A stretch of 62,786 bases of DNA, counting the filler, from Candidatus Woesearchaeota archaeon (GTDB lineage: Archaea > Nanobdellota > Nanobdellia > Woesearchaeales > GCA-2687795), in NCBI GenBank assembly GCA_030753365.1. It is 6 parts of 6 records of this genome, joined end to end, with 100 filler letters (N's around TTAATTAATTAA, not from the genome) between each part and the next. Parts side by side here need not be neighbours in the genome. Positions count along the whole stretch, not along the records: positions 1 to 8,727 come from JASMCJ010000014.1; positions 8,828 to 33,804 come from JASMCJ010000015.1; 4 more parts are not named here. One strand, given 5' to 3'. A program made the position numbers. Of this stretch, positions 6,001 through 9,000 are shown piece by piece. Position 1 is the first letter of the stretch. Each line of letters begins with the position of its first letter.

Positions 6001-9000
6001 AATACTTCCTCTCTATTTAAAGTTTAAGAAACAATCTCTCTTTTAGGCAATACAGACTGATATTTTTCACAAGCCTTATTACAATAAAAACACTCTTCTT
6101 TTTCTTCTTTAGAAGGCGCAATGCAGCTTCCATTCACAGTATAAACACAAAAATATCTATATGCTAAGACAATGTCTCCATATAAAAATTCATCTTCATT
6201 TCTTATAAACCTTGCAAAAAACATCCCTATCCTATCATCTAATAATAAGTCCTCATGATCCTCTCTAGTCTCCGGCTCAAGGAGACCGCTTAGATTACTG
6301 CGTTTAATTCCATCAAATACAATAAATGGGTTATACTTAGCTTCGACAGGCGCGTTAGATTTTTTAAAGAACGCCATTGTATATTCCACTATTAAAGAGA
6401 TTATCTAATCTCTGTTCAAATTTATTCAGCGAAAATGGGTTTAATACCCCAGAGCTCTGCTCTGGCTTTTTATGTCCATTTTCTGGAGTAAAAATGCCCC
6501 GTAGCTTGCTGCGATTGGAATTTTTACTTAATGAATTTCTTTTCATGAGCATAATATGATCCAATAATCCCAATAACATAAAGCACTGCAATAACTATCC
6601 TATTCCCATAAAAAGAGCCAAACACAAATCCTATCAGGAATCCAACAGTAATCAACATCCATGGAAACTTCAAAGTTTTTTTGAGCTTGAACAACACTCT
6701 GCCTGAAGTTGCCCCGCATAGCAAGATAATAAAATAACTCACAACCGCTGAACTAAGCGATGTTGCCATAAAGAAGCCTAACACAAGCAAAATAAATGCT
6801 AAGATTTCCACCCAGTTTTCATAAAGGTCTAGTTTTGCCATTTTAGCTTTGCTAAAATACCCCTTCAAACACTTTAAGATAATACACCCAGAACAACACT
6901 CCAACAAGCAGTGCTCCAATAATAGCTAATAAAATATTAATCTGAAGTGATAACATCAAAGCAGCACCTAACACACAGCCAAACAATAACACATAGACTC
7001 CTCTTGAATTAAAGAATACTTTGCTTCCATCCAAAGGCGGGATGGGAAGCATGCTGAACACTGCAAACCATAAGCTAACAAATATAGCTTTTTCAATAAG
7101 CATGTTATTAGGAAAGAACATGAACAGAATCTTAAACACTATTGCAAACATAATGTTTGCTAAAGCACCCATTAAAGAGATAGAACTCATTGTCAGCATG
7201 TTTATTCCATACCTAAAATATCCAATCCTATGGACAGCCATATGATGGAAAACTATTCCCCCTGGTATAAGAAGCCAGACATTGCCTCTTGAAACAAATA
7301 CAAATATCAATCCAAGAACCAATCCAAGCCACCATAGTTTATATTCCACCCTTATGCCCACATGCAGCCCTGCAATCCTCTGCGCAGATATATGAACAAG
7401 AACAACCAATGTCATGATTAGCACAGCATTAAACAGGTTTCTCATTCCAATTAAAATATCAAACTCCTTTGCGCCCCATTCTTTAAAGGAAACAATAAAA
7501 GCCAGGATTAGTATTGTAATTATAAGATCTTTAACTTCTGTCCTGCTGAACATGAAATATTTTTCCAGCTTATCTTTCAAATCACTCATAGGATAAAATG
7601 GCATTTAACTACCCTAGAAAAAGAAGTATATAATATTTACTAAAATTACTCAGATTTTATATTTTCCTTCTTTAACATCTTTTATAACTTTATCATACTT
7701 CTCTATTGTCCCTATATCAGACCAATAGCCAGAAAAAGGATAGCCAACCAGTCTTCCTTCTTTAGCCAATCTAGGGAAAATCTCCTTTTCCAGCATTGCA
7801 AAGCCTTTTGGAATCATTTCAATCACTTCAGGCTCAATTATATAAAATCCTGAATTGATAAGATTAGACGGCGCATCTTCTTTTTTGGGCTTTTCAATAA
7901 ATTCAAGTATTTTAGAGCCAGACAATCTTGCAACACCATACTTGCTTGGGTCGCTAACTGTTGTTAAAGCAATAGTTATCAGAGCATTGTTTTGCTTATG
8001 CAAAGCATACATCTCCTCTATATTAATATCCTTCAACTCATCACCATTGGAAACTATGAATGTCTCATTCAGCAAATGTTTTGCCATCTTTAAAGGGCCT
8101 GCAGTTCCAAGTGGCTCATCTTCTTCTATATATTTTATACTAACACCAAACTTACTGCCATCTCCAAAATAATCCATTATTTTTTCTTTCATATAACCAA
8201 CCGACAGAATAACTTCATTTATTCCAAACTTCTTAAGAAGATCAAGCAGATACTGAGTTATTGTTTTTCCATCTATAGGTATTAATCCTTTAGGTATTTC
8301 ATAAGTAATCGGCCTTAGCCTTGTGCCTTTGCCGCCTGCAAGAATGACTGCCTTCTTAGGTACATTAGCTCCCATAGCCCTTAACAATAAAAGTTCTATT
8401 GCATGGCTTCTATTCTTAATTTTAAAGCCATCAACATTCTTATCAACAGTCTTTAGTATATTAGAATCAAGTGTAAGTGTTACTCTTTCTTTCATAGAAC
8501 AACCAAGAATCACCCTTTTATTTAAATATTTTGTTTTTGTATGAAAAAGTATGATAAACTAAAAGTTTATATACAATCGTCTTATAACGTATGATGACAT
8601 CACATAAAACAGTGAGTGAAATCAATGGATAGAAATATTGCATTAGAATTTGTAAGGGCAACGGAAGTTGCTGCTATAGCTGCTTCTAAATGGTTAGGAA
8701 AGGGAGAGAAAAAGAAAGCAGACGGCGNNNNNNNNNNNNNNNNNNNNNNNNNNNNNNNNNNNNNNNNNNNNTTAATTAATTAANNNNNNNNNNNNNNNNN
8801 NNNNNNNNNNNNNNNNNNNNNNNNNNNTTCAAGCTCTTTCTGCTTCTGAGCCCTCCTATATTTCCCATACTTATCTTCAGGAGAAAACTTTGCTGGAATA
8901 ACGCTCACAGCTTCACCATTGCACTTTGGACAATTCTTTTCCATAGTGTATTGCCCGCACTCTTTACACTTTAATATTGCATTAGCCATCTTAAAACAAT

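Follow-up and report, generated by a model that had tools for sequence, protein, structure and literature searches.

The window analysed here is a 62,786-nucleotide string of contigs from a Woesearchaeota genome assembly (897 kb, 94.5% complete), in which positions 1-8727 correspond to contig C14. Table 1 lists the features found towards the end of this contig. They comprise a gene for a fusion protein (type A), in which a ribbon-helix-helix (RHH) head precedes a sugar-1-phosphate nucleotidyltransferase domain, the beginning of a divergent glpX gene, and an intergenic region with two TATA boxes and a tandem repeat between them. The remainder of glpX, followed by a class I aldolase gene, is located on contig C46; this join is based on the Pfam positions covered by the two fragments (1-31 and 42-307) and makes no use of overlap. 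The transcript of the fusion gene is predicted to be leaderless.

Table 1. Features at the type A locus on contig C14, in window coordinates.
Feature	Position	Strand	Details
Type A RHH-nucleotidyltransferase fusion gene	7650..8495	-	ATG at 8495; 281 aa
RHH DNA-binding head, residues 1-45	8361..8495	-	Strand R4-x-T6-x-T8, helices 11-20 and 29-40, KNRS turn
Sugar-1-phosphate nucleotidyltransferase domain, residues 48-275	7671..8354	-	R59, K69, D152, E201-K202 and D260 present
TATA box of the fusion gene (TTTAAATA)	8519..8526	-	24 bp 5' of the ATG; same position in orthologues
Predicted central operator ATCATAC-TTTT-TCATAC	8539..8555	-	10-bp period; between the two divergent TATA boxes
BRE-like purine run and glpX TATA box (TTTATATA)	8557..8573	+	TATA box at 8566-8573
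Second, inverted half-site pair GTATGAT-GAC-ATCACAT (predicted site)	8589..8605	+	3' of the glpX TATA box
Start of glpX (class II fructose-1,6-bisphosphatase)	8625..8727	+	Cut by the contig end

AlphaFold2 models the type A protein with a pLDDT of 95.5 and a pTM of 0.90. Residues 48-275 match the Pfam family NTP_transferase at E 1e-48 (PF00483: 166 bits against a cut-off of 21), not the nickel-binding domain PF08753 of NikR, and no Nudix or HTH domain is among the Pfam matches at E<=1. For the 45 residues in front of this domain the initial annotation proposed an RHH-type fold without any Pfam hit. The fold is borne out, since RHH_1 is matched at E<=0.01 by 31 of 44 aligned type A heads (best 4.8e-7). 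The missing Pfam hit is not: the 50-residue N-terminal piece alone matches RHH_1 at E 0.0057, under the curated cut-off, and the NikR model TIGR02793 at E 1.7e-4. A profile of the head matches seven PDB sequences, namely two of NikR (best E 8.6e-6), two of CopG, and CcdA, HicB3 and antitoxin Rv0298; like NikR, CopG and the last three are RHH proteins. Among solved structures, that of Escherichia coli NikR comes closest to the head (strands RVTITLD vs RVTLTLD). In the monomer model both helices are formed and residues 1-10 lack a strand, as had been noted before; the sheet of RHH proteins forms between chains, so its absence from a monomer is expected. Conservation over 110 type A orthologues is high, with R4 in 109, T6 in 97 and T8 in 109, and D18, K27, R29 and E34 in 110 each. 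Type A is therefore confirmed as a NikR-type RHH head fused to a sugar-1-phosphate nucleotidyltransferase fold.

The roles of the catalytic residues were mapped by motif from VTC1, where R13, K23, D111, E195-K196 and D219 are used for pyrophosphate and catalysis according to PMC9168903. The type A counterparts are kept in 97 (R59), 103 (K69), 109 (D152), 110 (E201-K202) and 95 (D260) of the 110 orthologues. The source genome holds four PF00483 genes, and because only type A and a plain enzyme (C28:14334) retain intact motifs, type A probably makes an NDP-hexose; the balance tips slightly towards an enzyme that is still catalytic. The nucleotide could be GTP or UTP. The GDP-mannose-pyrophosphorylase likeness proposed earlier survives at the level of the fold and is not established for GDP-mannose itself: the nearest solved enzyme in both sequence and fold is 8X7S (Foldseek E 1e-26), deposited as a UTP-glucose-1-phosphate uridylyltransferase, with human GMPPB and plant VTC1 just behind. 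Moreover, none of the best 25 NCBIfam models reaches its curated cut-off (top NF052502, 194 bits against 440), and in the model the chain stops right behind the catalytic domain, without the C-terminal beta-helix of GMPPB/VTC1. E125 aligns with the acidic guanine-binding position of VTC1, and a UDP-sugar-linked paralogue (type B, see below) has it as well.

The tandem TCATAC repeat that had been reported ahead of the TATA box is indeed present, 12 bp ahead of the TATA box of the fusion gene and 10 bp ahead of that of glpX; the latter spacing is the commonest among orthologues (20/45). It is the best site in the genome, with 26.3 bits, or 22.3 bits when the source genome is excluded from matrix training. 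At 20 bits or more it is the only site in the genome and five shuffled genomes yield none, whereas at 9 bits or more the count approaches background (39 against 23-29 in shuffles). A general promoter element was therefore rejected. The second pair of half-sites, 3' of the glpX TATA box, lies in what is predicted to be a repressing position, and comparable downstream sites are seen at loci L002, L009, L012, L022 and L039.

To place these numbers, an order-level search matched type A in 203 of 301 genomes at E<=1e-30. Of the 150 matches listed, 125 include the head; they come from 124 genomes, or 123 if one unpublished genome is disregarded. The loci examined were 110 of these 125, together with 20 of the 25 that have no head. 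A matrix was built from 22 sites in the first 30 loci and applied to the 130 bp next to the start, with a threshold of at least 10 bits. By this measure 62 of the 80 held-out orthologues have a site in their promoter and 18 have none, against 0 of the 20 headless homologues and 0.4% of shuffles. Because six control starts are doubtful, the scan was repeated with 460-bp windows at 12 bits, giving 61/80 held-out promoters against 0/20. A quick tree, which excluded six of the 20 headless proteins (those with doubtful starts) and about 40% of the type A rows, interleaves headless enzymes with fusions, so the control is not merely a distant clade; the headless, siteless L117 is sister to L065, which has head and site (SH-aLRT 100). 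The tandem pattern had earlier been counted in 23 of 30 loci. In our 30 training loci, a different set, the exact pattern occurs in only 12 and 23 is the count for a single ATCATAC. The exact pattern further occurs in 25/80 held-out and 0/20 headless promoters, and it is absent from 100 rounds of dinucleotide shuffling, a control that had been lacking.

Combined with a TATA box, the pattern is matched 54 times, in 50 of 300 genomes, and 45 of these matches lie at the fusion locus; the reversed pattern gives none (one unpublished genome excluded). Of the nine other matches two lie ahead of an H+-pyrophosphatase gene and seven are unexplained, three of these in genomes without a type A match. 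TCATAC is also the half-site of E. coli NikR, whose operator is GTATGA-N16-TCATAC (PMC7055735). The recognition strand is nearly identical too, which gives independent support for the head reading the repeat. Two other binders were considered and rejected. No NikR C-terminal domain was found in the 94.5% complete genome, and RHH_1 gives one weak stand-alone candidate (C71:8850), under the cut-off. Taken together, type A very probably binds the ATCATAC tandem operator.

Genes behind the operator include several for the supply of hexose phosphates and pyrophosphate. Where the divergent first gene is glpX (12 type A loci), a class I fructose-1,6-bisphosphatase (FBPase; 4) or phosphofructokinase (PFK; 7), a site lies in the intergenic region in 12/12, 4/4 and 6/7 cases, or 22/23 together, with a matrix trained on half of the loci. 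A class V FBPase gene follows a site once, in G115 (86% complete), where the type A gene was not found; four unrelated enzyme families for the fructose-6-phosphate/fructose-1,6-bisphosphate step thus stand behind the same site. A glycolytic or gluconeogenic gene lies upstream in 37/110 type A loci against 1/20 controls. The site stays at glpX after relocation of the fusion gene in G215 and G103, and detached sites precede PFK in G168 and H+-pyrophosphatase in G019, G285 and G053. Of ten detached type A sites checked, four precede sugar or pyrophosphate genes and six are unexplained. In all, 13 detached matches other than those at glpX, PFK, class V FBPase and H+-pyrophosphatase are unexplained. 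The operator also occurs beside the TATA boxes of aldolase and PGM/PMM operons.

PGM/PMM is found inside the fetched flank in 79/110 loci and directly follows the fusion gene in 66/110, so that co-transcription is more probable than control through a separate promoter. In the source genome this gene (C65:8324) is detached from type A and shows no operator, nor does the H+-pyrophosphatase gene (C60). A scan of 917 ORF upstream regions revealed no further convincing type A target; the candidate site at C28:6026 was dismissed since the gene behind it is non-sugar. Consequently, of the three promoters that the initial annotation placed under control of the protein, its own and that of the divergent FBPase are retained, as predicted targets, and that of the phosphomannomutase is dropped for this genome. 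The targets here would be the fusion gene itself and glpX-aldolase, and the view of an RHH regulator acting on both divergent promoters through the operator is supported by these comparisons.

The head profile matches only three proteins in the source genome: type A and two paralogues, on contigs C5 (type B) and C61 (type C). These had been described as sharing the head and lacking GxGTRL, and both points hold. Type B genes match 48 of 201 genomes and type C genes 38 of 201 (each total including one unpublished genome). In 29 loci of each, the recognition strand reads K-x-S-x-T for type B and K-x-A-x-S for type C. The predicted type B operator is ATCTTAC-N4-ATCCTAC, with a UDP-glucose dehydrogenase gene in 26/29 loci; that of type C is GTATGA-N4-TTCATAC, with a heptose-pathway gene in 23/29. 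Strand and operator thus change together across the three paralogues in this sequence comparison. Held-out promoters are recognized by the matrix of their own type in 41/54 (A), 11/14 (B) and 12/14 (C) cases, and cross-scores are low except for the A matrix on C promoters (8/14), so that A and C sites are incompletely separated.

In the source genome the B and C genes no longer adjoin their pathways, which are on other contigs. The highest-scoring sites of the genome nevertheless point to these pathways: for type B C41:5090 (31.7 bits; shuffled maxima 14.8-21.2), ahead of UDP-glucose dehydrogenase, and for type C C4:3627 (25.5 bits; shuffled maxima 14.5-18.1), ahead of gmhA-hldD-HAD-hldE. Both matrices were trained on other genomes, although the C41 and C4 stretches had been seen earlier and the ranking is not fully blind. 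The earlier remark that the genome has a single good site hence applies to type A and not to types B and C. Further detached sites lie ahead of the same pathways elsewhere, at the dehydrogenase in G081 (type B) and at gmhA/hldE in G079, G105, G189 and G190 (type C). The B pattern is present in 36/47 genomes with the B gene against 2/153 without it, and the C pattern in 21/37 against 0/163 (unpublished genomes excluded); as both patterns derive from loci in these very genomes, presence is partly circular, and as related genomes are not independent, the weight lies on the absence side and on the detached sites.

The enzyme part of both paralogues is strongly altered. The GxGxR loop is found in 0/29 type B and 0/29 type C proteins, R59 is missing, and His replaces D260 in 28/29 of each, leaving both types without the catalytic Arg/Lys; D152 and (E/Q)K are kept. 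Type B has near-invariant pocket residues of its own (K186, Q201, F214, E258). This combination of lost and retained residues is in keeping with a pocket that binds product and does not catalyse, like that of GMPPA (PMC11228364). Types B and C are therefore predicted to be non-catalytic sensors of the same design as type A, and the term trigger enzyme from the initial annotation can be used for type A only.

The closest named relatives of the type A gene are mostly from Woesearchaeota and Nanoarchaeota. The proposed confinement to DPANN does not hold, however, because a profile search finds a full- or near-full-length relative in 35 of 301 Patescibacteria genomes; named members of this bacterial cluster are Parcubacteria, Patescibacteria and Berkelbacteria. 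Among 30 Patescibacteria promoters, 11 score with the archaeal A matrix (0.6% of shuffles), a count that may be inflated because TATGAT looks like a -10 box, and 19 have no type A site. By eye, the bacterial sites overlap the -35/-10 region. Neighbouring genes encode PGI/PMI (5), PGM (4), GlpX (4) and PFK (2), and R59 is replaced by Lys in 21/30 members. The Atlas in addition lists a Methanobacteriota cluster with RHH_1 and NTP_transferase.

The best explanation for these observations as a whole, which we hold to be reasonably probable, is that the fusions are regulators that sense nucleotide sugars and turn down sugar supply. The heads would pair into RHH dimers, two of which would sit one helical turn apart on the tandem repeat; the specificity of RHH proteins resides in the strand, and their dimers come together on adjacent repeats (PMC3413123). 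The enzyme-fold pocket would read a nucleotide sugar. An NDP-hexose, which type A itself probably also makes, would serve as co-repressor, so that a filled pocket would turn down the genes for hexose-phosphate supply. In the same way type B would govern UDP-glucose dehydrogenase and type C the ADP-heptose operon. It appears probable that what the pocket senses is a nucleotide sugar or a precursor of one. Repression as the net effect is favoured by a little.

The doubt about direction comes from the geometry. Of the 110 type A loci, 69 have a site that ends at most 16 bp ahead of a TATA-like hexamer, with a gap of 11-13 bp in 61; in the other loci the site is between TATA box and start (6), elsewhere (10) or missing (25). 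Binding upstream of an archaeal promoter usually activates and binding downstream represses, according to PMC5512572 and PMC4706686. The central site at 11-13 bp before the TATA box is an archaeal activator position, which argues against plain repression and leaves its direction of effect ambiguous. It might thus be argued that, with substrate available or little product around, dimers on the central site recruit TFB to both promoters, and that only the weaker downstream sites repress. The fixed gap of 11-13 bp (61/69), the roughly 10 bp to the divergent TATA box and a position clear of the BRE agree with this: the binding sites of archaeal activators are immediately upstream of the BRE (PMC5512572), and TrmBL1 acts as an activator on upstream sites and as a repressor on downstream ones (PMC4706686). 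We nonetheless consider it rather unlikely, given the six sites between TATA box and start, the detached PFK and H+-pyrophosphatase sites downstream of the TATA box, the B sites that abut the divergent TATA box in 23/29 loci, the C sites downstream of TATA, and the overlap of the bacterial sites with the -35/-10 region.

Two further explanations concern the two halves of the protein. Type A could be a pure sensor whose fold only binds the ligand, with synthesis left to the plain nucleotidyltransferase at C28:14334. Consistent with this, the operator is retained in 15/19 orthologues with an altered glycine loop, from which sensing looks more conserved than catalysis; D260 is changed in 15/110, the bacterial members often carry Lys for R59, and many NrtR proteins have lost catalysis (PMC2330246). 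The idea is improbable, though, in view of the high conservation of all five catalytic motifs, the headless enzymes with intact motifs that nest among type A, and the position of PGM/PMM, maker of the substrate, as next gene in 66/110 loci. Alternatively, the protein could be a housekeeping enzyme whose head is vestigial or serves dimerization only, and the repeat could be bound by another factor or belong to the basal promoter. The single-sequence Pfam score under the curated cut-off leaves room for this, as does the operator binding by the head, which is predicted. Such a head would, however, hardly have a DNA-contact strand conserved as strongly as the active site, nor a repeat that is missing from headless homologues and, at 20 bits or more, from all other promoters of the genome, and that varies with the strand across paralogues; moreover, only three proteins of the genome match the head profile. 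This makes it highly improbable, and we retain the sensing regulator as explanation.

Several known systems resemble parts of this design. NrtR is annotated as an enzyme and combines an enzyme-fold effector domain with a DNA-binding domain, many members being without and some with catalysis (PMC2330246). It also shares lineage-specific operators and recruitment to several pathways with the present family (PMC2330246). NrtR differs in being a Nudix domain with a C-terminal winged HTH that is released from DNA by ADP-ribose (PMC2330246), whereas the fusions have an N-terminal RHH on a nucleotidyltransferase fold and belong to nucleotide-sugar pathways. Trifunctional PutA likewise has an N-terminal RHH on a metabolic enzyme and represses its own regulon, as proposed for type A, but it is a flavoenzyme with an unrelated catalytic fold and switches by membrane relocation (PMC5293562); the abstract of PMC5293562 describes no paralogous sensor family such as types B and C. 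NikR (PDB 1q5v/2hzv) provides the closest solved head, a near-identical strand and the TCATAC half-site (PMC7055735). Type A lacks its nickel-binding C-terminal domain, has sugar genes as targets, and repeats its half-sites at 10-11 bp, whereas those of NikR form a palindrome with a 16-bp spacer (PMC7055735).

On the enzyme side, the catalytic fold is shared with GMPPA/GMPPB and CugP-type UDP-glucose pyrophosphorylase (PDB 7d72, 8x7s), at a TM of 0.75-0.78 over the query. The paralogue GMPPA does not catalyse; it senses feedback by binding GDP-mannose, the product (PMC11228364), and a role of this kind is proposed for types B and C. GMPPA/GMPPB and the CugP type have a C-terminal beta-helix and no DNA-binding head, and GMPPA targets an enzyme rather than transcription (PMC11228364, PMC9168903). 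TrmBL1 of Pyrococcus furiosus resembles type A in acting on glycolytic and gluconeogenic genes with an effect set by site position relative to TATA (PMC4706686); it has a TrmB fold, a TATCAC-N5-GTGATA palindrome and a global regulon (PMC4706686), as opposed to the small local regulons of types A, B and C. Overall, the fusions likely work as feedback repressors in the manner of NrtR and PutA; they resemble both in their working and are members of neither family, nor of NikR.

A literature search, in which subscription journals were thinly covered and supplementary tables were outside the scope, found no description of the fusion. Because public records label these proteins solely as nucleotidyltransferases, a regulator family lies hidden under an enzyme label, as with NrtR. 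Types A, B and C likely form an undescribed family of gene switches that are predicted to sense nucleotide sugars. It is about an even call whether Woesearchaeota and Patescibacteria run dedicated nucleotide-sugar-sensing factors with the following history: an ancestral enzyme-regulator, which made an NDP-hexose and controlled gluconeogenic and pyrophosphate supply, duplicated into dead sensors with pocket and strand re-tuned for each surface-glycan pathway (UDP-glucuronate, ADP-heptose).

For each of the three paralogues a protein, an operator, a target operon and a candidate ligand are at hand, so that purified protein and short duplexes would suffice to test the scheme, with no need to grow the organism. 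If it is true, a three-residue strand-to-operator code would exist, and nucleotide sugars would feed back directly on transcription in two domains of life. The ADP-heptose and UDP-glucuronate pathways are predicted to be regulated in an archaeon. The hosts have small genomes, are mostly uncultured and have few known regulators, yet they would devote up to three of these to the supply of surface sugars.

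In the type A protein an RHH head is fused to a sugar-1-phosphate nucleotidyltransferase; some close relatives show variant architectures. P0006, P0082 and P0053 have either a presumed cupin domain, resembling mannose-6-phosphate isomerase, in place of the head or an extra, presumably kinase-like domain at the C-terminal end. At three loci (L093 on G148:C9, L098 and L074) a second nucleotidyltransferase, lacking the head, lies directly 3' of the fusion gene. Since the glycine loop of the fusion is altered at these same loci, a division of labour between the fusion and the adjoining headless enzyme is suggested. 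A MiaB-like methylthiotransferase gene is located upstream, on the same strand as the fusion, in 27 of the 110 type A loci compared (L003, L004, L006 and 24 more); this association is probably purely positional.

The window joins contigs C14, C15, C16, C19, C21 and C24. Because its N runs (the one tabulated and four later ones) are contig linkers, gene adjacency across them is meaningless. C14 also carries fragments of presumed large surface- or tail-fibre-like proteins, with a C-terminal domain we assume to be chaperone-like, and a presumed archease-like gene between two small, presumably toxin-antitoxin-like gene pairs. VGIGT motifs are repeated in the fragments.

Elsewhere in the source genome (G000), an archaeon, a bacterial-type ADP-heptose operon and a family 9 heptosyltransferase are found. 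Another gene run presumably resembles the MEP isoprenoid pathway; its gene names are presumed from the translations, the ispD-like match being the one checked.

Locations of features in the window and in other contigs
Feature	Location
Surface- or tail-fibre-like fragments (presumed)	window 313-2369
Archease-like gene and flanking pairs (presumed)	window 2623-4187
Contig linker, N run around TTAATTAATTAA	window 8728-8827
ADP-heptose operon: gmhA, hldD, HAD phosphatase, split hldE	G000 C4:3769-7616
Family 9 heptosyltransferase	G000 C61:3892-5079
MEP-like run (presumed): dxs, dxr, ispD, ispF, ispE, ispH	G000 C74:3473-9262
Six consecutive TCATAY/ATCATAC repeats, mostly 10-bp period	L173:1455-1516 (G122:C10)

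Type A sites, the tandem repeats predicted to be the operator of the fusion, also occur detached from it. The repeat row at L173 has virus-like surroundings, in a genome without a type A match. Perfect sites lie immediately 5' of seryl-tRNA synthetase in two genomes (L351 in G100, L356 in G078), and others precede large secreted, surface-protein-like genes (L349 in G039, L354 in G103), whose products are possible consumers of nucleotide sugars.
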